Below are positions 1-27,767 of a stretch of DNA of 64,000 nt, one piece after another (the stretch's first letter is position 1; each line of letters starts with the position of its first letter). The translations under genes were made by a program, and so were the position numbers. The DNA is from Eledone cirrhosa (Eukaryota). Under the pieces are notes generated by a model. That model worked only from the letters and a program-made list of their open reading frames with translations, had not been told where the DNA came from and made no database searches. The DNA lies in assembly GCA_964016885.1 (NCBI GenBank), contig OZ024750.1, positions 10,230,001-10,294,000 on the forward strand. The letters run 5' to 3'.

Positions 1-67
1 TTTGGCTTCTATCCAGAATCTGCTTAAAAAACATCAACTTCTCGAGGCTGATGTTGGTGCTCATGAG
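1..67 (+). CDS. SPTAN1: alpha-spectrin exon (partial): [22 protein letters not shown]
   Basis: open frame from base 2; donor GTAAGG at 68. Confidence 0.9.
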
Positions 68-3000
68 GTAAGGAGTGATTTATTTTACCTAAAACTATTG
101 GAAGCTTGTCAGGTGTGTGTGTACCAGTGTATATATCAATGTGTCGAGTTGTGTCCCTTTATGGCTAGTTATTAGAGGTCATTAAAATTAGTACCAGATT
201 GAAATTAAGACTGGAGGCAATATGATTAAAAGGCTTGAAAGTGATGTCCCAGCATCGCTGCAGACCAATGACTGAAATTAGTAAAAGAATATAGTATGGG
301 GTGCGAGAAGAAATGGATTTAGATGGGATTAATATAGTCAATTAAGTTTGTCATTGAGACCTCTGGTGTCTTTGGTCCCTGGATGGCTGTTTTCCTTCTC
401 AAACTCAGGAGGAGTGAATCCTGCCTGAAGAAGGATCCCTGTAAGATCAAATGTTTGATTCTAATAAATCCGTTTTCATTTTAGGACCGTATCAAAGACT
501 TAAACACTCAAGCTGACCAATTTTTGGAGGCTGGAGTTTGGGATGTTGAGAGTATTGCTGAACGCAAGAAGACAATTAATGAAAGATATGAAAGGTAAGC
601 TTGCTTTCTTTTTAATACACTGAAGAACCTTAAACTGTTTTTTGATACACTGAACCTTAAACTGTTTCTTGATATTAGAACTTCAAAATAACCTTTTTAT
701 TATTATTTTGTTTAATCTAGAATAAAAGAGCTTGCTGAACAACGCCGTCTTAGGCTCAGTGAGTCTAACACTAGGCACCAGTTCATGAGAGATATTGACG
801 ATGAAGAGGCTTGGATTAAGTAAGTTGACTATTTATTTATATATATATATATAACAGAAATATTATTTATAAATATATAGCAGAAATTATTATTATAGTT
901 GGTATTATGAAGAAAATACAACCAAAAAACTACTTTCTTTTATAGAGAAAAGAAAATTCTTGTTAATTCTACTGATTATGGCCGCGATTTAACTGGGGTT
1001 CAGAACTTGAGGAAAAAACACAAACGACTTGAGGCTGAACTGAACAGCCATGAACCAGCTATCCAGGTAACATTTTAATATACTACCTTGCCACTTCCTT
1101 AGCGCCTTGTAACCTTGCTTCTCCATATATTTTCTATATATTTTTATTTTGGGAATATCATGAGTGTAGATCAATAACTCTCAAGTTTATTTTGTTGTAA
1201 AACTCTTATACAAGTTTTAAAAAATCACAACCTATGCCATATTATTTACAATCGCTCATATTTTTATTTTAATGGCATTAAATAAAATGACAATTGTTTT
1301 AGTGAAATAAAAAGAAATATATGGAACTTTTATTAAAATATATTTTAAGGCATCTTATCTTTTGGATTTCACCAGATTTGTTTTCTTCAATTTGATATTT
1401 TTGTTGTTTTCAGTTTGTCCAAGAAACTGGCCGCCGTCTGATTGCTGAGTCCGATATTAATGTTGCTGACATAGAAGCCCGTCTTAATGGCTTGGCACAA
1501 AGTTGGGAAGAACTAAACCAGCTATGTGTCCACAGGTTTGTTATTTTACATGTTATTTCTACCAGCTATGTAATGTACTCTATATTATATACTTAGAACA
1601 TTGTCTGTAGTTACAATGTATGCTAGTGACATATCTATATTCCTCTTTACCTCTTGTAGGAATTTTATAATAGGCTTTGTGTTTATATATTTGTTACATG
1701 TGTATATATTGTAATATATTAAATGATCACTGTTTGTTTTGTAGAGGTCAGAAACTGGAACAATCATATGCATTCCAACAATTTACAGCCAACGTTGAGG
1801 AGGAAGAAGCCTGGATAACTGAAAAACTACATTTATTATCTGGTGGAGATTATGGTGACACTATGGCTGCTGTACAGGTAATCAATATAGTTTTTAATGG
1901 ATCAATAGTAAAACTTTGATTGGCTCTTTGTTTTGTTTGTTAGAGATAAATGTATATATACTGGTAATTAGTTGACAGATTAGAGATACTTTCTTATAGT
2001 GGGGGTAATGTTTATGGGAGTTGTATACACTTTTATATGGTAAATATGTGGTTTTTGATGGACAGAAACTATTCTTTTAAAGTTTCAGGTTAATCTTCAC
2101 CATCATTCAACCCTTTTGATAACTATCCAACAAAAACAGGCTCTGGTTCTATGGGGTGGATGGGAAAAGAGTTGCTATTTGAATTAAAACCTTACAACAA
2201 TTTTATATAAAACTTGTTACAAATATCTTAATAAGGAAATGATAGTGTATTTTATTAGAAATATGGTGACAAAATGATTAAAAATAACCAACAATTTTCA
2301 AACATGTTTTAATGAATAGTCTAAAAGAAAGAATTTAATATTAAGTTACATTCATCATTTGTAAAATACTTGTTAAAACTTATCTTTGCTTCTACCTTAA
2401 TACTAATTTGTCTCTTATTATTTGTAGGGTCTGCTCAAGAAACACGAGGCTTTTATTACAGACTTCCAAGTTCACAAAGACAGATGCATGGAGATTCAAA
2501 GAGAAGGGCAGAATTTAATTGATGAGGTAAGAATTCATTTTATCTTGTTCTTCTTTATCTTCATTTATTTACTCTAAAGGGAATCACTTTTTATACACAT
2601 TATGATCCTGATTTGTACTGCATATAATAATGTCTATGAGGAATTGGATTTATGGATAAAGTTGTTTTACTACAGTATTTTATTCAGTTGATATCATTTT
2701 AAGTAATAAGCCAACTGTAATGTTTTAAATATCATTTCAAAACTGTATTATATATATTCAATATTGTTAATGGTGTTTAAATGTCTATTTAGAACAATCA
2801 CAATGCTCCAGCCATCCAACAACGTATCAATAGTCTCCAAGAAAAGTTGGCCTCCCTTGAGAACGCTGCAGCCCAGAGACACACAGGGTTGGTTGACAAT
2901 TCTGCCTTCTTACAGTTTATTTGGAAGACTGATGTTGTGGAAAGCTGGATTGGTAAGTTGACACTTTTGTTTTATCTCACCTAATATTGGTTGGGTGGAA

Positions 3001-6000
3001 TCATCTGATTACACTGTTATTGATGTGTTGTTGATAAAAGTGGGATATGGATGATTGAATTTAGACCCATGAATGTTAATGGTACTTACTGACATCTGAG
3101 TAATGACAAGTCAGTCTAAACATGAACTGAGACCAGAATTGGAGACATAACTAAATACTGCAAGCTTTTGTGACCATATTTTTTCTGTAGGTCCTCTGAT
3201 ACTGGTGAAATTGATGTAGTTCAGTTTAAATAATAAAGTCTAAACCAGTCAATGTGGGTGTTGGACCTTGCCAAGGGTGCACACTGTCACCTCTCCTGTT
3301 CATAATCTTCATAGACAGGATTGACACGCACAGCTGGGTTAGAAGTGGTATCAAGACTGGCAGGTGTAGGACCAGTTGGCTGGAATTTGCAGATGACATG
3401 ATACTACTTAACTTGTTTGAAGGTGATCTTTGACATACACTTGATAGTTTTAATGCCAAGTGTTGCTTAACAGGAATGAATATATATGATAGGAAATTAT
3501 TTGTGGTTGCATTCCTTTACATTAGGCCGACTTCCCTTCCCTTATGAGGTTGATTTGTAAGAAGGAAACAGTTCCAAAAAAAATATTTGAGTAGACATAC
3601 AACTAAAGTACTTAAAGGTGGTGCCCCAGCATGGCCTTAGTCTAATGAGTGAAATAAGTAAAGACTATGAAAATGTATAAAAAGTAGCGAACATAGTTAA
3701 TAAGAAATGATGTATAAATTGTAGAACAAATGTCTCATAAATGTTAAATATTTCCTTTAATTTATATAGCGGACAAAGAAACCCAAGTTCGCTCAGATGA
3801 CTATGGCCGTGATTTATCCTCCGTACAGACTCTGTTGACCAAACAGGTGGGTTATTCTGTTTTAAATATCTTTAATTTATTTATCATAAAGTGTATTTTA
3901 TGAGGAGAGAACCTCCTTTTAATTATCATCATAATCATAAATATTATTAATATTTTTTGTAGGAAACTTTCGATGCTGGATTACAGGCTTTTGAGAAAGA
4001 AGGTATTCATACCATCACTGCCTTAAAAGACCAGCTTATTGCATCCAATCATGCTCAGACTCCGGCCATTGAGAAACGCTACAATGATGTAATTGCCCGG
4101 TAAGTTGTGGCACTCCTTCACCTCAGTGTCGTACCTCATCAACTGAGCTGCCTTTCATATTACTCCCCCATTAATTCAGCCATACCACCTCCCCATTCTT
4201 TACATTAAAATCATTTTCTTTTCTTTTCTCAAACATTGATTAAATCATGTTGGTTGTTTCTATATATTTCAATTTATTGAATTGTTGTCTTTTCCAGATG
4301 GAAGAAACTTTTGGACGATTCAGAATCCCGTAAACAGAGATTGTTAAAACTCCAGGAGCAGTATCGCAAGATTGAAGACCTCTACCTTAATTTCGCTAAG
4401 AAAGCTTCAGCTTTTAACAGTTGGTTTGAGAATGCTGAAGAAGATCTCACTGACCCTGTCAGGTGTAATTCAGTAGAAGAAATTAAGGTAAATAGAACAC
4501 AGCTATGTTAAAATGACTGGCAACATAGATATTTCTTTTGGTTATTTGGCAATAAACATATATTAAAGTATATATTTTAAACTCTATGAGTGCCCTAAAT
4601 CTACTGTTATGGCGTTTATTTCCCACCTCTTGCATGTCAAAAACATATATTTTTTAGTTTACGATCTTTAATGATTTTTTGTAAAATGTAACAAAACAAA
4701 ACAAAAAATGGTAATCTTGGAACTGTGAAATATCAAAACTATATTGATGGCACTCAGTTAAACTGTGAATGATTTGGATTTCTTAATGCTATATAAATTA
4801 TTTGTAAAGAAATTGTGTGTGTGTATGTATATATGTATGTTTCTGTATGTATGTATGTATGTATGCATATGTGTGTGTTATATATATATGTATCTATATA
4901 TTTAACATTGGTATTTTTACAGGCGCTGAGGGAAGCCCATGACCAATTCAAGGCATCATTAAGTGCTGCTCAGGCTGATTTTAACCAACTTGCCAGTCTG
5001 GACAAACAAATAAAGAGTTTTAATGTTGGACCTAACCCATATACTTGGTTCAACATGGATGCTTTGGAAGACACTTGGAGAAACCTACAAAAAATCATCA
5101 AGGTACATTATTCCTAGTCACCTGTTATTCTTATCCCCTGGTGTAACATAACAATATATCAAACAATAGATACCTGACTGTCTTTAAATATTGTCTGATG
5201 TCACTATTGATATGATGGTTTATTAATCTCATTGTTCTATAAATTGACAGGAACGTGATGATGAGCTGAACCGAGAACAAAAAAGACAAGAAGAAAACGA
5301 TCAACTTCGTAAACAATTTGCTCAAGCTGCTAATGCTTTCCATTCTTGGCTGACTGAGACAAGGTCTGTATTTAACTGTCATCTATATTTGTACACCTCT
5401 CTCCTCTCTTTGTTGCTGCACAAACATGTCTCTGGTTGACTTTACATTGGAGATGTATTTATCTTTGTAGAAATACAATATCTTGTGTGTTCATTAGTGA
5501 CAGGGTCACTAGCAGATTCTCTAGAAGGTTAAAGGCCCAGAGAATATGATGAACCAATGTATATTTTTTGCTTGCTTTAAGAAATATACATGAATGAAAA
5601 TTATGGCTGTGGTGTTAAACCAAACAAAAATGGCCTTAATCGGAAAAAAAAAAAATCTTAAATTTTTATTAACATTTGAATATATTTTTGTTTCCATAAA
5701 AATATTTAAGATTATTATTTCTTTAGCTATCACGAACATTATGTAAGACATTTTTTTTTTTATTTGAAGTTAAAATATGATTTCAGACACGAAAAAATAT
5801 TTTTTACATAATTATTGTTTAAATGATTTACCATTTATTGATGTCTGTTGTTTAAATGATATAACTTTTGTTTTGTCTTTTCTCTTTTTACACAACTCTT
5901 GTATTCTATTGTACCTGGTACTTCTACTACTTGCCGTGACTTCAGACTCTGGCTTTTGGATGGGTTATTACAGTTTTTACCTTCTTAGCATGATGCCAAC

Positions 6001-7897
6001 TGATATGGCAGATCAGTGTATTTAATTGCTCTACATGGCCCCCACCCCAGAAGATGCTTACCCTAACATGTTGCAGTGCCTCTTTAATCAATTATTTTAC
6101 ATTAGGTCCTGTTGTTGAGGCATGTTAGCAACTAATCCATCATAATCCAGTTAATCCAGTTTGGTTCCCTCCTCAAATTAATCCAGTACAAAGCATGAAA
6201 TATATTAACATTTCAGTTAAAATCATCAGAAGTGGGAGCTTGCAGCTGAAACTAAGCATTCATAACTAAAGATCATTAACTTTGCCTTTCATCCTTACGG
6301 GGGTCGATAAAATAAAGTACCAGTAATGCACTGGGATAATTGCTGGCCTTGTGCCAAAAGTAGAAACAATTATTATTATTATCATCAAGGCAGTGATTTG
6401 GCAGAATCGGTAGAGCGTCGGACACTCTGCCTTGTGACATAGAATTACGGCCCTTTACGTTCTGAGTTCAAATCCCGCTGAGGTTAGCTTTGCCTTTCAT
6501 CCTTTTGAGGTCGATAAAATAAAGTACCAGTAATGCACTGGGGTCGATTTAATCGATTTTCCCCTCACCCAAAATTGCTGGCCATGTGCCTAAATCAAAA
6601 ACCATTATTATCATCATCATGGTGTGCTCTTAGATTTAGTTTTAACAATTGTAAAGTAATCAACTTAACGGATTTGAATCATCACTAATTATCATTTAAT
6701 TGCTATTAATTATACTAAATAACTGACATCATCATCATCATTATATCAATGTTGGATGTTGGACATTACATTCCAAGTCTTTGTTTAGAGTTATTACCTT
6801 AGATTGGTCAGAAGGTTGTGTATTGCTCAGACAATACATAAACCCTTCCATTACCATACTTCTAATGAAATATACTACCTGTGATTTTCAATTAATTTTT
6901 TAAAATAATATAAAATCTGGAAGGATTTAGTAATATAACCTCATTAAGTTGCTGTTTAAAACCTAACTTATGAAAAGGTTACATAAAATTATAGAGGAAG
7001 GTTTAAATTTAAACATGAACACAAATGACTTTTCATTATAAAACCAGGGCAGTTTCAGGTGAGTTGATATCAAAAGGATTAAATGTCTTCCGTTTAAAAG
7101 AGAATTTAACAAATGTTACTTTTCAGTCAGACTCTCTTGGAAATATTTGGCAGAAAGCCTGTATATTTAGAAATGTTTGGCAGAGAGCCTGTATATTTAG
7201 AAATGTTTGGCAGAGAGCCTGGATATTTGGAAATGTTTGGCAGAGAACCTGTATATATTTGGAAATGTCAAAGAGAAGTTCTGAGTGTTTAATTAGGAAA
7301 AATTGCATTGATGTTTTAAATTATTTGAGGTATTGTTAGAATATAAGACACATAAGCAATGTGTATTGTGTGTGAGAGAGAGAAAGAAAGAATACATACC
7401 TCCATTGCTGGTTTCTAACATTGAATTGTCTCCCCAGTCAAGATTGGTTTGATATTACAATTTAAAAAAAAAATATTTACAAATGATCGTTAGTGTCTTA
7501 TCTTGGATTGTAATAACTAATATTTCATGTCTCCCTTCCTTTTCCTCTCCCAATTCAGCCTATTATCTTAACTATTGATCCCAATAAAAGTAGATTTCTT
7601 TTAATGAATCTCTTACCCTATAATGTTTTTTTTTTATAGGCATTTAATATATTGGCTATTTTATTTGTTAGTCAATGATAGCATCCATGTTCCATTTGAG
7701 CTGACTTAACTGCTAGATTTTCTCTCTTCCCCTCATACAACCTGAACCGTACTAACCCAGCCTATTACCAGATAATAATTACCAAGTGCCTTTTAACATT
7801 AATGGTTTAGGTGTGTTAGCCAAAAGCATGTCAAATAGCAAGAAAATAAAACTGCCTGGAATTCTAATGAACTTGCTGATCTCAAGCATGTTTAAAA

Positions 7898-7932
<35 letters not shown>

Positions 7933-10609
7933 CATTGTAAAATATTTTATATTGTATTTGATAAAAATGGAAGTTAGGTTTAAGTATTGTATTAATATTG
8001 ATGATAATAATATTTAGAGTAAAGATTTAACTTATTTGTATGGTAACAAGAACTCTTCTTCATAAGTTTGTTACTTTGCTAGATGTTTTTATTTCTTTAT
8101 TTTCTGTTTAGTCTAAGATTGAAGCACCATTTTCTATTGGACCTCTCTAAAAAATATTACTGAATATTGATTATTCACAACACAGTCTTATATTCGAAAA
8201 TATAAGACAAATTTAATTGAGCCTTCCTGTGAAAACATTATTTTCTTGGTACTGAGAAAACCACAAGAAATTGCCATTATTTGTTTCACAGCTTGGTGGT
8301 TGTTCATCAGAAGAGTACCATTATCCTTCAGTCTACAAAGAGAACTTGTAATCAAATGTTATTTATACCAAAGACAAACCAGAACTTACCTTAACATGTA
8401 ATCTCTTATGTGTATCATATTTAAGTTTTCACGTCAAGGTTTTTTAAATGGTAGTTATATCTACATTGAAGTTGTAACCCTTGCTAGCTGGGAAAGCAGG
8501 TCGTAATGATGATGTCATGGTATATCATCATCATCATTTCACGTCCGCCTTTCCCTGCTTGCAGTGTGTGCATATATATATATATATTGTAGCTGTTATC
8601 AAAATGGTTACTATTTGTTGTTTTTAATCTGCCTTTTAATGTTCCCTTAAATAGCGTTTCTAAGATAGGCCCAAGGCCATGTCTTATCAATATTAGAAAT
8701 TGACTTAACTGTTTGTTTTGATTTTAACAGAGCTGCTATGATGGAGGGCTCCGGAAGTCTTGAAGATCAGTTGGAAGCTGTTAAGGTAAGAACCAACTGT
8801 GAAGACTTTCGAGATTTTGGAATAGGTACACTATCTCTGTATGTTGTAAGGGCTGACTAAAAGAGTTAGTGCCAGGAATGGTATCTGGCTGTAAAACACT
8901 GCTTCAGAAAGTCTCATCCAATCTATGCCAGTTTGGAAAAGATGATGGCATATAGAATCAATTTTTAAATTTCTTGTAACAATTCATCTTTAACTTGTTA
9001 ATTTTATTGAACTGTTTAACCAAATATCATCGTAAAAATAGCAGCTAATATACTTGATGTTGTAAACCAAGAAGTTTGAATTAAGATGACACCTTCGTTA
9101 AAATAAATAATTCTAGTTTTAAAAAAATGACAGGGGTAGTCAACCCTGAAATTTTAATTAAATATATGATGCACTGAGGAATAAGTTTCTTCTTCAACAG
9201 TACAGTCACAACTAAGATCTGGACATGTTTAAGTCTGATTAGGCTTCATCAGCGAATTTCCCTGGCCAAAATGGTGTTCCTCCCGAAGGGTCTTTGGAGT
9301 AACGTTACTCGACAGAGTGTGTAGTTCAGAGATCAGTCGCTCCAGGTAGAACTGCTACTTCTCCGAATTGAGAGATCACAGCTCCGGTACTATGGACATG
9401 TGATTATAATGTCTCACGAAAGAATTGTTGAACTCTGAGATCAAAGCAGTAGAACAAATACTGCAAGGTATCCAACAGTTCTGTTGATTTACCACCCTAA
9501 CATTACATTTAGAAGTTAGTGTCTGAATGTCTAACTGATATAATAAAACTATATTAAACAGTCTGTATGTATAGTAGTAGCAATTGTCTAATTAGTTTAA
9601 TACTACTATGTTAAATAGTCTCTATGTATAGTAGAAGTAATGGAAAGTGTATTTTTAATATGTTATCTTCTAAATGGCAGTTGTAAAATATCTCTGTATT
9701 TTAATTAAAATTTTAGCGTAAAGCATCTGAAGTTAGAGCACAGAAGGGTCAACTAAAACGAATTGAAGATCTCGGAGCAGCCATGGAAGAGAGACTCATT
9801 TTAGATAACAGGTAAGATTTAACCTCTACTTTGCTTTTATTTTCTGAAATTGTGATAGTATAGGTGTTGAACCATTTATTTGGCAAGTTTGGAGCCATAG
9901 TTGGTCTGAATTTCGGTATTACAGGTTAAATATAGACTAAGCAGAAAAATAAAGAACAAAACTGTATTTAATAAATACAAATCAATATACTTCTTCTTAA
10001 GTAAGGTCTGTTTAATCTTTATTAATCCATTTAAAATTCTCAAAATATCTGTATGGAATGTCTACCATGTAAAATATATAGAATGAAATTTCAACAAATC
10101 AATAAATATGACTGTTATTCACTTTCTGAACTCCTGCTCCTCTTATATTGATCTTTTTTGTAGCTATGATTACTTACATATTGTAGAGCAGTCATTTCTG
10201 AATATAAATGACTAAATATAAAATCATAAACATTTGCCAGCAGGTCAGAGATATCTATTGAAGATGGAGCCAAAAATCAAAACAAAATCAGTTTAAAAAA
10301 TAGCTGATTTTCTGGGTTTCCCAGATTTCTGGAAGTCAGATAAATGATTCAGTACCTGCGTTACCATTTGTAATAAGATGTCTTTGTTATATTTTTCAAT
10401 TATGTTGTTTGATTAACCATTGCCAGTAAATTTGGTTTCTAATTCTTTCTTTTAATTAGGTACACAGAACATAGTACCGTTGGTTTGGCCCAGCAGTGGG
10501 ATCAACTGGACCAATTAGGTATGAGAATGCAACACAATTTAGAACAACAAATCCAGGCCAGGTAAAAAATTCTTTCTCTCTCGATACATATATACATACA
10601 TATATATAT

Positions 10610-10668
<59 letters not shown>

Positions 10669-12899
10669 TGTAGTTCCTGTTTGTTTGTTTGTTTGTTCAC
10701 GAACTTCTCCTATGGTTTTGAAGATAGACCCCCATAACCATATATATTCTGAAACTACATTGCCAAGGGTACTTGGATAAGTATATTTCATTTTAATCAA
10801 AGGGTTCCCCGGGGGCACAAACCCCCGCTGAAAATTTTTTTCCCTTCAATTTATATGAAATTTAAACCATAGATAAGTGACAAGATATAATGCCTATTCA
10901 CAAAATTTCAGCAAATTTCAATAGTATTAAGACATCCTAATGGCGGGTTAAACCCCCTATAGTGAACATTTTGAAAGCCCATAACTTGAGTATTGGAACC
11001 TCTATTATCACGGGGTTTTTCTATTAATTAAACGTAAATCAACAAAAAAAGTACCTGTCTTTTATAGTAAAATTTGGCTAATTTAGACATTTTATCTATG
11101 GCAAAACATCACTAGAATTATGACAACAAACATTATTAGTTAAACTTTAACATTTTCCCTTTATTTTTTCTCCATAAATTATATCGCCTTACAAAAAAAA
11201 TGTGTGAAACGCAGCAAGGTGCGGGTAATTCAGCTAGTATATAATATATATTAACTGATGTATGGTGTTGGTAGTAGTAATCATAGTTTGTGTGTCATTA
11301 AAACAGCTGTAGACCTTGCAAATATTACTAAATTCTACATGATCTTCAAAATGATTCTCAATAGTAGATTTTTGTCAGTTTTGAATGTTATTGCAACTAT
11401 TTCATTCTTTGAAGTTTTTAACTCATTACTATTGTACCTCCTCTCTTTATTACAGAAACCGCAGTGGTGTGTCAGAAGACGCTTTGCGAGAATTCAGCAT
11501 GATGTTCAGGTAAAAAGCTAAATTATTTGTGGTTAAGAAGTTTGCTTCACAATCGTGTGGTTCTGGGCTCAATCCAACTGTGTAGTACCTTGGGAAAGTG
11601 TCTTCTGAAAGAATTTGATTGGCAGAAACTATGAAGAAGTCTGGTGTGTGTATGTATGTCTGTGCCTGTTGCTGTATGTCTGTCTCTCTATTGACACCAT
11701 TTAGAAAGCAAGTGGTAACGTTTGTTTATGTCCATCATAAACAGTATGTCTTTGAGACATTAAAATGATAATGTTGGCTCGAACAAGGTGGTGTAGTGTC
11801 CTCCTTTTCCTCTTCACTTTAACAGTTTCCCCTAAAACTAAAATTAAGGCATCTTCTCTGAAGATAAGCTTTATTCCAACTGTTACAATTCTATAGTCTT
11901 ATCACTGTAAATTGCCATTTATCTATAAATTTATAGCTGTAAAATGTCTCTCTCTCATATTCTTATCTAACATAAACCATTGTATTCATTTCAGACACTT
12001 TGACAAAGACAAAAGCGGCAAACTTGACCACCAAGAATTCAAATCCTGCTTACGAGCTTTGGGTTATGATTTACCAATGGTTGAAGAAGGTCAGGTCGAT
12101 ACAGAATTCAAAGCAATTTTGGATATTGTAGATCCCAATAGGTCAGTTAAAGTTTGTTTAATTCCATTTGAACACCAGTTTGTGATGACTAATTAATAAT
12201 TTACTTAATCTTGTTTTCTTAATTATTGGAATTAGTTTAATGTAATTTAACCCCAAATAAACCAATTTAACAATTATTTTCTAAATCTAAATTTCTTACA
12301 GGGATGGACAAGTCAGTCTGCAAGAATATATGGCTTTCATGATTAGCCGAGAGACAGAAAATGTCCAGTCCAGTTCTGAAGTGGAACAAGCTTTCAGAGC
12401 TCTCACTTCAGGAGAGAAACCTTATATCACAGCCCAAGAATTATATGCAGTAAGTTTCTAATAACATAACTTCTATACTATTATTTTCAATAATTTGTTA
12501 TAATGTTAATTTATTAAAAAATGATTAAAAAGGAAAATTGTTTGTATCTAATCCACTTACATACACATTGGAAATAATAATCCTTGAATAATAGAGAAAT
12601 GGTTATTTTATATGATTTTAAAAATATTTTAGAATTTGTTTTTGATAATTGTTTAGTATTACGGATAAATTTCTTTTCCTGTTAATTTAAAATATAGTTT
12701 TATCAAATATTGACAATTTGTTTCCTCACCTTTAACTGTTTAAAAAAATAACCACCTGTCCTTTTCTTTCTAGAACCTGACTAAAGAGCAAGCAGATTAT
12801 TGCATCAGTCGTATGAAACCCTACACAGATAAGACTGGTCGATCGATACCGGATACATACGACTTCACTGAATTCACCAAATCTTTGTTCATCAATTAG
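1..12899 (+). CDS. SPTAN1: alpha-spectrin (non-erythroid), 3' part of gene; 20 exons, 5' end outside window
   Basis: GT-AG exons splice into one open frame containing spectrin-repeat motifs ([48 protein letters not shown]), EF-hands ([28 protein letters not shown]) and a TAG stop at 12897-12899. Confidence 0.97.
485..594 (+). CDS. SPTAN1: alpha-spectrin exon: [17 protein letters not shown]...INERYER
   Basis: TTAG acceptor, GTAAGC donor, frame continuous. Confidence 0.92.
721..819 (+). CDS. SPTAN1: alpha-spectrin exon: [12 protein letters not shown]...[10 protein letters not shown]
   Basis: CTAG acceptor, GTAAGT donor. Confidence 0.92.
946..1066 (+). CDS. SPTAN1: alpha-spectrin exon: [32 protein letters not shown]
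   Basis: ATAG acceptor, GTAACA donor. Confidence 0.92.
1414..1535 (+). CDS. SPTAN1: alpha-spectrin exon: [12 protein letters not shown]...[12 protein letters not shown]
   Basis: TCAG acceptor, GTTTGT donor. Confidence 0.9.
1745..1877 (+). CDS. SPTAN1: alpha-spectrin exon: [13 protein letters not shown]...[11 protein letters not shown]
   Basis: GTAG acceptor, GTAATC donor. Confidence 0.92.
2428..2526 (+). CDS. SPTAN1: alpha-spectrin exon: [20 protein letters not shown]
   Basis: GTAG acceptor, GTAAGA donor. Confidence 0.92.
2793..2952 (+). CDS. SPTAN1: alpha-spectrin exon: [12 protein letters not shown]...[19 protein letters not shown]
   Basis: TTAG acceptor, GTAAGT donor. Confidence 0.92.
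3195..3485 (+). mobile_element. decayed LINE reverse-transcriptase fragment (RTE/Expander-like) in spectrin intron
   Basis: + frame reads [23 protein letters not shown]...[10 protein letters not shown] with an in-frame stop. Confidence 0.7.
3770..3846 (+). CDS. SPTAN1: alpha-spectrin exon: [25 protein letters not shown]
   Basis: ATAG acceptor, GTGGGT donor. Confidence 0.92.
3963..4099 (+). CDS. SPTAN1: alpha-spectrin exon: [15 protein letters not shown]...VIAR
   Basis: GTAG acceptor, GTAAGT donor. Confidence 0.92.
4298..4487 (+). CDS. SPTAN1: alpha-spectrin exon: [12 protein letters not shown]...[12 protein letters not shown]
   Basis: CCAG acceptor, GTAAAT donor. Confidence 0.93.
4923..5102 (+). 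CDS. SPTAN1: alpha-spectrin exon: ALREAHDQF...[23 protein letters not shown]
   Basis: ACAG acceptor, GTACAT donor. Confidence 0.93.
5251..5363 (+). CDS. SPTAN1: alpha-spectrin exon: [38 protein letters not shown]
   Basis: ACAG acceptor, GTCTGT donor. Confidence 0.92.
5946..5963 (+). CDS. SPTAN1: candidate alternatively spliced 18-nt alpha-spectrin microexon (LWLLDG)
   Basis: TTCAG|ACTCTGGCTTTTGGATGG|GTTATT; phase 2-2, frame-preserving; gives [17 protein letters not shown], resembling vertebrate ETR-TYLLDG-SCMVEESG. Confidence 0.7.
6389..6609 (+). mobile_element. tRNA-derived SINE with Deu/Nin-like central domain (partial copy at 6275-6370)
   Basis: A box TGGCAGAATCGG, B box GAGTTCAAATCC, GCCTTTCATCCTT..GGTCGATAAAATAAAGTACCAG; many copies in window. 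Confidence 0.8.
7137..7268. repeat. 30-bp tandem repeat, ~4 copies
   Basis: unit GAAATGTTTGGCAGAGAGCCTGTATATTTA. Confidence 0.9.
8731..8785 (+). CDS. SPTAN1: alpha-spectrin exon: [18 protein letters not shown]
   Basis: ACAG acceptor, GTAAGA donor. Confidence 0.92.
9717..9811 (+). CDS. SPTAN1: alpha-spectrin exon: [32 protein letters not shown]
   Basis: TTAG acceptor, GTAAGA donor. Confidence 0.93.
10460..10561 (+). CDS. SPTAN1: alpha-spectrin exon: [34 protein letters not shown]
   Basis: TTAG acceptor, GTAAAA donor; highly conserved alpha-spectrin motif. Confidence 0.95.
10575..11237 (+). mobile_element. non-autonomous Helitron in spectrin intron (5' boundary approximate)
   Basis: (TA)n/(GTTT)n near 5' end; CGCA..TGCG hairpin then CTAG|T at 3' end. 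Confidence 0.6.
11456..11509 (+). CDS. SPTAN1: alpha-spectrin exon: [18 protein letters not shown]
   Basis: ACAG acceptor, GTAAAA donor. Confidence 0.93.
11995..12141 (+). CDS. SPTAN1: alpha-spectrin EF-hand exon: [15 protein letters not shown]...ILDIVDPNR
   Basis: TCAG acceptor, GTCAGT donor. Confidence 0.95.
12302..12449 (+). CDS. SPTAN1: alpha-spectrin exon: [21 protein letters not shown]...ELYA
   Basis: ACAG acceptor, GTAAGT donor. Confidence 0.94.
12774..12899 (+). CDS. SPTAN1: alpha-spectrin last coding exon: [17 protein letters not shown]...EFTKSLFIN*
   Basis: CTAG acceptor; TAG stop 12897-12899. Confidence 0.94.
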   Translation, partial: NLTKEQADYCISRMKPYTDKTGRSIPDTYDFTEFTKSLFIN

Positions 12900-27190: not shown

Positions 27191-27767
27191 ATATGCTTTT
27201 GTATATATGTGTGTGTGTACATTTCTTTCACAGTCAACAATATTTACAACAACAACATTATGTAACCTTTAACAACAGAAATCTATTCTTAGACGGGATA
27301 ATATCAGGGATGGCGGGGTCTTTGTAGGGAGTGACTGGGGGGGCTGGGCTTCACTTGGTGGGTGGTATTGTATGATGATACTACTACTACTATTACTATT
27401 GTTACCACCATGACCACTACCCACTACTACTATTTTTATTGTTGTTACTACCACCACTACCCCCACCACCACTTCATCTACTACTACTGCTCCTCCTACT
27501 ACTACTAATTTCTTTATTAGCCACATAAGGCTCACATTAAGAAAACATTAAAAACAACACATGATGGCACTGTGTGTGTGTGGGGGGGGGTTAATAAATT
27601 TATAACAGGGACTAAGAAAATAAACATTAAAAAAAAACATCAAACAACAATTTCCTCAAAAATGGGGAGACTCGAAGGGTCACTCATGGAGAAAACCCAC
27701 AAAAATCCACGACCACCAGGGGCAAGGGTCTCTCCCAGTTGTCCTCCACCAATCTACAGATGTACAC

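Follow-up and report, generated by a model that had tools for sequence, protein, structure and literature searches.

According to the available text of PMC6521328, the last two repeats of alpha-spectrin mediate its pairing with beta-spectrin, and loss of exon 46 of the erythroid gene SPTA1 impairs the formation of stable dimers (available part of PMC5866036). The alpha-LELY variant (c.6531-12C>T), which is located in intron 45 and has an allele frequency of 25.5%, causes partial skipping of this exon (PMC6617536), and c.6549-4C>G falls in intron 46 (PMC9176113); these positions, taken from the accessible portions of both papers, therefore define SPTA1 exon 46 as c.6531-6548, i.e. 18 nt. The exon begins with the third base of codon 2177 and ends with the second base of codon 2183, and on macaque numbering, which here stands in for the human protein, it covers R2177-A-Y-F-L-D-G2183; the R and G codons are both split, as they are at the octopus exon described below. 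Human SPTA1, which we take to be 2419 residues long, gives the same residue number, and a 1997 paper by Wilmotte reportedly announces in its title that loss of exon 46 impairs stable dimers.

In SPTAN1 (alphaII-spectrin), all 21 proteins compared, from fishes to mammals, read ETR-TYLLDG-SCMVEE at the same site. A six-residue insert in alphaII is said to have been described in papers of 1999 and 2010. Three alternative splicing processes in alphaII are mentioned, without detail, in the accessible portion of PMC3249148. We found no paper combining TYLLDG, spectrin and alternative splicing in the literature searched, which lay mostly outside subscription journals.

Neural microexons dependent on the eMIC domain have a UGC motif near the acceptor, a long AG-free zone and a weak donor, and the microexon programmes of flies and mammals are reported to be rewired nearly throughout, the four exons found at equal positions in fly and mouse including none in spectrin (available text of 10.1101/2021.02.24.432780). 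Two neural microexons, those of APBB1/2/3 and MADD, have been confidently traced to the bilaterian ancestor; the available main text of the same paper (10.64898/2026.09.05.749416) makes no mention of spectrin or SPTAN1, and its datasets may list the exon. The zebrafish knock-out of an sptan1 microexon removed the 15-nt LSKLL exon (accessible parts of the PMC12626420 supplement and of PMC7935315); the phenotypes of that knock-out have no bearing on the 18-nt exon and were set aside. A 15-nt microexon is also reported in C. elegans spc-1 (PMC7706725, in its available part), and a search for its position gave no match in 10 supplement files. The available portions of PMC9750877, PMC3751641, PMC12626424 and 10.64898/2026.09.14.751627 contained nothing further on the microexon considered here.

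The DNA analysed in this study (the window) is a 64,000-nucleotide stretch of contig OZ024750.1 of the octopus Eledone cirrhosa, which contains the 3′ part of an alpha-spectrin gene (Table 1). The five exons around the site match O. bimaculoides alpha-spectrin (P0421) at 208 of 210 residues. Within the 3367-nt intron 5364-8730, whose flanking exons end at 5363 and begin at 8731, an earlier note had drawn attention to an AG/GT-bounded, frame-preserving 18-mer encoding LWLLDG, and the sequence is as it described. The segment reads CAG/ACTCTGGCTTTTGGATGG/GTTATT, with canonical bounds, and its phase (2-2) keeps the frame, so that TETR-AAMMEG becomes TETR-LWLLDG-AAMMEG upon inclusion.

Comparison with other segments of the intron revealed that the 18-mer has the longest AG-free zone (158 nt) among 92 stop-free AG-3n-GT candidates. 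LWLLDG scores 21 (BLOSUM62) against the six SPTAN1 residues (protein P0477) and 17 against those of SPTA1, whereas the other five of the six 18-nt candidates reach at most 1 against SPTAN1, and none of 3000 dinucleotide shuffles of the intron scored 21 or more (maximum 19). The resemblance to vertebrate TYLLDG at this last-repeat site, which had also been claimed, is thus borne out, and it extends to all 21 SPTAN1 proteins. The 18-mer is almost certainly a real, alternatively spliced microexon (see below).

Table 1. Position of the microexon and of associated features in the window
Feature	Position	Strand	Remarks
Upstream constitutive exon	5251..5363	+	ends ...WLTET-R, phase 2; donor AAG/GTCTGT; X4 spliced contig ends at 5363
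AG-free zone ahead of microexon	5787..5943	+	158 nt by script count
Possible distant branch point TATAAC, then 25-nt pyrimidine run with one TCTC	5860..5889	+	read from sequence
TGC (position of SRRM4/eMIC UGC motif)	5932..5934	+	14 nt ahead of microexon
Cassette microexon, phase 2-2, adds LWLLDG	5946..5963	+	18 nt; donor TGG/GTTATT
Downstream constitutive exon	8731..8785	+	spliced to 9717 in X4
Alpha-spectrin gene, 3′ part	2..12899	+	residues ~1675-2451 of O. bimaculoides protein; tblastn map, nine GT..AG joints in X4

Repeated sequences were observed in the same intron and elsewhere in the window. Downstream of the microexon, positions 6277-6570 are occupied by a very high-copy interspersed repeat, likely a SINE (with depths in the millions in the DNA runs and a high depth in the spliced one), approximately four copies of a 24-nt tandem unit lie at 7150-7260, and a long array of 55-nt units yielding repeated open frames is located at 27750-29950.

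A long pyrimidine-rich tract had been noted ahead of the 18-mer, and this was only partly correct: the 37 nt beside the acceptor are ordinary (68% pyrimidine; 54-76% at ten neighbouring exons), whereas a strong, purer run sits further up, at 5865-5889. The TATAAC that precedes this run does not fit YTRAY, and no YTRAY was found within 100 nt of the microexon. Among 11 exons the microexon alone has a TGC within 30 nt of its acceptor (0 of 10 neighbours). Its AG-free zone exceeds those of neighbouring exons (33-117 nt) by a modest margin in AT-rich introns, and two constitutive exons also have long zones, of 117 and 112 nt. The donor, GTTATT, is weak. As judged from the nucleotide sequence, the UGC, the long AG-free zone and the weak donor fit the eMIC pattern.

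The use of the microexon was analyzed in four runs of one study (X1-X4), none of which is recorded as RNA. Nine GT..AG joints at other introns identify X4 as spliced RNA; X1-X3 contain none of these joints. No joint across 5364-8730 was present among the X4 joints listed, to which 1675 further joints are to be added. The contigs of X4 were more informative: the upstream spliced contig ends at 5363 and the downstream one aligns from 8730, 54 letters before a joint at 8783; of two intronic contigs, one starts at 5334 and the other ends at 8758.

Six sets of forms were modelled as 31-mer graphs on the assumption of plain 31-mer unitigs. Skipping alone placed the break at 8729 and inclusion alone at 8759; a break at 8758 needs the skipped form and a break at 8730 the included form, and the combination of intron, skipped and 18-nt included forms was the only one of the six sets that gave both. 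Together with isoform pairs of other molluscs (see below), this contig geometry, which is specific but indirect, comes from one run and has one break (8730) that a variant at 8760 could also produce, strongly suggests that both included and skipped forms are made in the octopus. The microexon thus appears to be in use, as the earlier note had proposed: the geometry needs the inclusion form, and a cuttlefish isoform carries the identical peptide. A 27-nt variant of the exon (5946-5972) was rejected, since it predicts a contig start at 8731 and not at the observed 8730. The depth of 68.6 in the microexon bin of X4 against 22.2 for the intron contig was likewise left unused, because contig depth is unsuited to ranking the parts of one gene; the DNA runs exceed contig depth there too.

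Unspliced X4 contigs of intron 5364-8730 have a depth of 22-30, compared with approximately 1-13 in most other intron bins. Splicing around the microexon may be slow, although contig depth is a poor measure of this.

Comparison with vertebrate erythroid spectrin revealed a close counterpart. Among 102 parsed SPTA1 rows, 80 carry xxFLDG, six are without exactly these six residues and 16 have other sequence (nine more fell outside the pattern and were read separately), and in the same survey all nine SPTAN1 rows carry TYLLDG; pig erythroid spectrin (PDB 8IAH) reads ETR-AYFLDG-SLLK. No skipped alphaII form was seen (0 of 21 SPTAN1 proteins, found with queries that held the insert). Since the octopus microexon and SPTA1 exon 46 agree in position, length and intron phases, they are very likely orthologues. 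In the case of porpoise and beluga SPTA1 (P0276 and P0277) we observed nine extra residues just ahead of the exon-46 segment. The site of this extension is presumably the location of the heart-specific insert in alphaII.

Related inserts were found in proteins of bivalves, gastropods, a brachiopod, myriapods, chelicerates and insects, and the conservation between molluscs and vertebrates that had been suggested therefore not only holds but reaches arthropods, a brachiopod and the erythroid exon. Among the matches listed, LWLLDG occurs in cuttlefish, Sinanodonta, two scallops, Haliotis and two centipedes, MWLLDG in spiders, a scorpion, mites and a tick, MWLLEG in oyster and mussel, MWLITG in Lottia, MWLLDP in Lingula and MWLLDGG(G) in Ruditapes and Mya; among the same matches insects have a different, 8-residue form (YRLLGWDG and variants) and some bivalves have 7-8 residues. 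The insert-bearing query, which is biased towards the insert, gave 83 proteins with an xxLLDG-like insert, 36 without and one unrelated among the 120 listed of 961 matches. With the insert-free query (upstream exon), the 120 listed of 472 matches comprised 13 with the insert, 47 without, 19 ending at R, four continuing into other sequence and 37 with no anchor.

The insert is absent from the listed proteins of O. bimaculoides, Helobdella, Owenia, Lineus and several gastropods and bivalves, but since the exon is optional, these proteins do not show that it is missing from the genomes. Two cuttlefish proteins (P0395 and P0426; 2433 and 2427 aa) are identical except for the insert, as are two of Mya (P0402 and P0437; 2419 and 2411 aa), and the exon is therefore alternatively spliced in molluscs. 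It had further been supposed that gene predictors would miss such an exon. This is only partly so: the six SPTA1 models mentioned above lack the residues, but the models of cuttlefish, scallops, abalone, oyster, mussel, Mya, Lingula, centipedes, spiders and insects carry the insert, and the exon is not hidden but already inside many public gene models. Although annotated in many genomes, it has apparently not been recognised as the orthologue of exon 46; no link between exon 46 and invertebrates was found in the literature searched, whose scope took in few subscription papers.

A different insertion was observed in P0421 of O. bimaculoides, in a part of the protein upstream of the window. Twelve residues follow RDPSNIQ at the site of the SRRM4-regulated LSKLL microexon of SPTAN1; they show no likeness to LSKLL and are absent from cuttlefish and the other invertebrate proteins checked. 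This site is possibly a second shared hotspot.

In order to place the insert in the protein fold, we used AlphaFold models of two invertebrate fragments from different species, both single chains, one with the insert (P0018) and one without (P0057); the fold search returned spectrin and actinin only. The models place the insert where helix A of the last spectrin repeat ends. In P0018, helix A ends at D108 of LWLLDG and is followed by a short low-confidence turn, with pLDDT below 50 at residues 112-116, the displaced loop. In P0057, it ends at the second M of SSMM (M116), before a five-residue loop. On the basis of these helix ends, inclusion is predicted to put bulkier residues in place of the last turns of helix A and to give a longer A-B loop, leaving the fold unbroken.

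The microexon is probably the counterpart of SPTA1 exon 46 and of the TYLLDG segment, likely ancestral to bilaterians and likely both included and skipped, with a predicted exchange of the end of helix A that would tune alpha/beta dimer nucleation. The steps of this interpretation are (i) the splice sites, the frame, the peptide and the match across phyla, all of which can be read directly from the sequences, (ii) production of both included and skipped forms, strongly suggested by the evidence given above, (iii) a predicted alternative closure of helix A, by AAMM/SSMM in the skipped form and by the bulkier LWLLD in the included form, with AAMMEG shifted into a longer, looser A-B loop, (iv) a resulting change, suggested by human genetics, in folding stability and in lateral pairing with beta-spectrin, and (v) as a candidate, neuron-biased inclusion driven by the eMIC domain of Srrm234 acting through the UGC. 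For this last step we consider the arguments to be about evenly balanced, as the flanking signals fit the eMIC pattern but red cells include the vertebrate exon. At the dimer-nucleation site, the octopus exon may thus tune stability and pairing; it cannot be required for dimers in invertebrates as it is in human alphaI, because skipped forms are common in invertebrate records.

The strongest competing explanation, which we nevertheless regard as unlikely, is that the exon is ancient and alternatively spliced but acts on something other than dimer nucleation (ligand binding, EF-hand domain packing, or which of beta- and beta-heavy spectrin is chosen), or that its regulation is non-neural. Skipped forms dominate the unbiased invertebrate sample (47 versus 13 among the 120 matches listed), red cells, which are not neural, use the exon (available text of PMC6617536), the neural sptan1 microexon of zebrafish and mouse is the other, 15-nt one, and alpha-spectrin is not among the four eMIC exons shared by fly and mouse in the available part of 10.1101/2021.02.24.432780. 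Against this, the sole functional data at the site concern stability and heterodimer formation, and the UGC, the long AG-free zone and the weak donor are those expected of an eMIC target.

Modulation of dimer nucleation by an old exon remains our preferred interpretation. That molluscs, arthropods and vertebrates inherited the exon from their common ancestor is likely, judging from the sequences compared, because its position, length, reading frame and sequence match the human red-cell exon. This ancestry rests on vertebrates and protostomes, in a sample with no named echinoderm, amphioxus, nematode, flatworm or non-bilaterian protein. A quick tree with long branches placed three insert-free proteins (P0124, P0125 and P0130) outside the named bilaterian groups, alpha-actinin aligns across the insert site with little gap, and the tree and this alignment differ as to which state is ancestral.

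The vertebrate and protostome exons may instead have arisen separately at the same old intron, for example if the initial 18 nt of the next exon were duplicated (xxMMEG to xxLLDG). The microexon and these nucleotides (8731-8748) match at 8 of 18 positions, mostly at the 3′ end, and both follow the pattern x-x-hydrophobic-hydrophobic-acid-Gly, a likeness that could ease repeated gain; recurrent exon gain at equivalent sites is reported to be common (available texts of 10.64898/2026.09.05.749416 and 10.1101/2021.02.24.432780), and the 7-8-residue forms of insects and some bivalves, together with a sample of this composition, lacking a named invertebrate deuterostome, point in the same direction. 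However, an aromatic residue at position 2 followed by L-D-G is common to SPTA1, SPTAN1, molluscs, the brachiopod, chelicerates and myriapods, this pattern is unlike the downstream AAMMEG, SCMVEE and SLLKET, and length and phase are equal. The shared aromatic-hydrophobic-L-D-G pattern therefore argues for a single origin, and we judge separate origins to be improbable. It is more improbable still that the 18-mer survives in octopus as a conserved relic with little or no use, despite its weak donor, the insert-free single listed protein of O. bimaculoides and the lack of a joint through the exon among the X4 joints listed, given that its peptide is identical to that of the cuttlefish inclusion isoform, that the X4 contig geometry needs the inclusion form and that its splice sites and frame are intact.

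Between cephalopods and mammals, the single ancestral exon that we favour has retained its sequence and length as well as its position and phase, and a clinically known exon is its probable counterpart. This makes a puzzle addressable, namely that six residues needed by human alphaI for stable dimers are optional in invertebrates. A bolder proposal, which we put forward only tentatively and consider somewhat doubtful, is that the alpha-LELY exon is a bilaterian-ancestral, neuron-biased, eMIC-driven switch of dimer assembly that still works in cephalopods and other protostomes, whereas red-cell spectrin became locked in the included form and dependent on it; on this proposal, that dependence would be the reason why a splice variant of 25% frequency modifies human anaemias. 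If this is true, the exon would join those of APBB and MADD among the very few microexons traced to the bilaterian ancestor, and would be the sole one of them with a known human disease allele and biochemistry.

The octopus microexon can be compared with several known systems. It resembles eMIC-dependent neural microexons (SRRM3/4, Srrm234) in being short and frame-keeping, with a long AG-free zone, a UGC near the acceptor and a weak donor, but its conservation from protostomes to vertebrates is rare for that class. In depth of conservation it is similar to the APBB1/2/3 and MADD microexons, for which octopus and centipede were among the species studied; these, in contrast, were called on tissue-specific inclusion in at least nine species (available text of 10.64898/2026.09.05.749416). 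The 15-nt LSKLL exon of SPTAN1/sptan1 is a microexon of the same gene family, but a different exon in an earlier repeat.

The SPTAN1 segment TYLLDG is located at the same site and shares four of its six residues with the octopus insert; in contrast to the octopus, with which it was compared at the protein level, no skipped protein was present among the 21 examined. Another such system is SPTA1 exon 46, which likewise follows ETR in the last repeat, comprises 18 nt in phase 2-2 and encodes AYFLDG (LWLLDG in octopus). Its skipping in human red-cell spectrin is caused by a variant, gives chains that form no stable dimers and worsens inherited anaemias, whereas protostome records are rich in skipped forms. 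Skipped alphaI has six residues before GTLE and the skipped protostome form has seven, and we would guess that this difference in loop length may explain why only the skipped alphaI fails.
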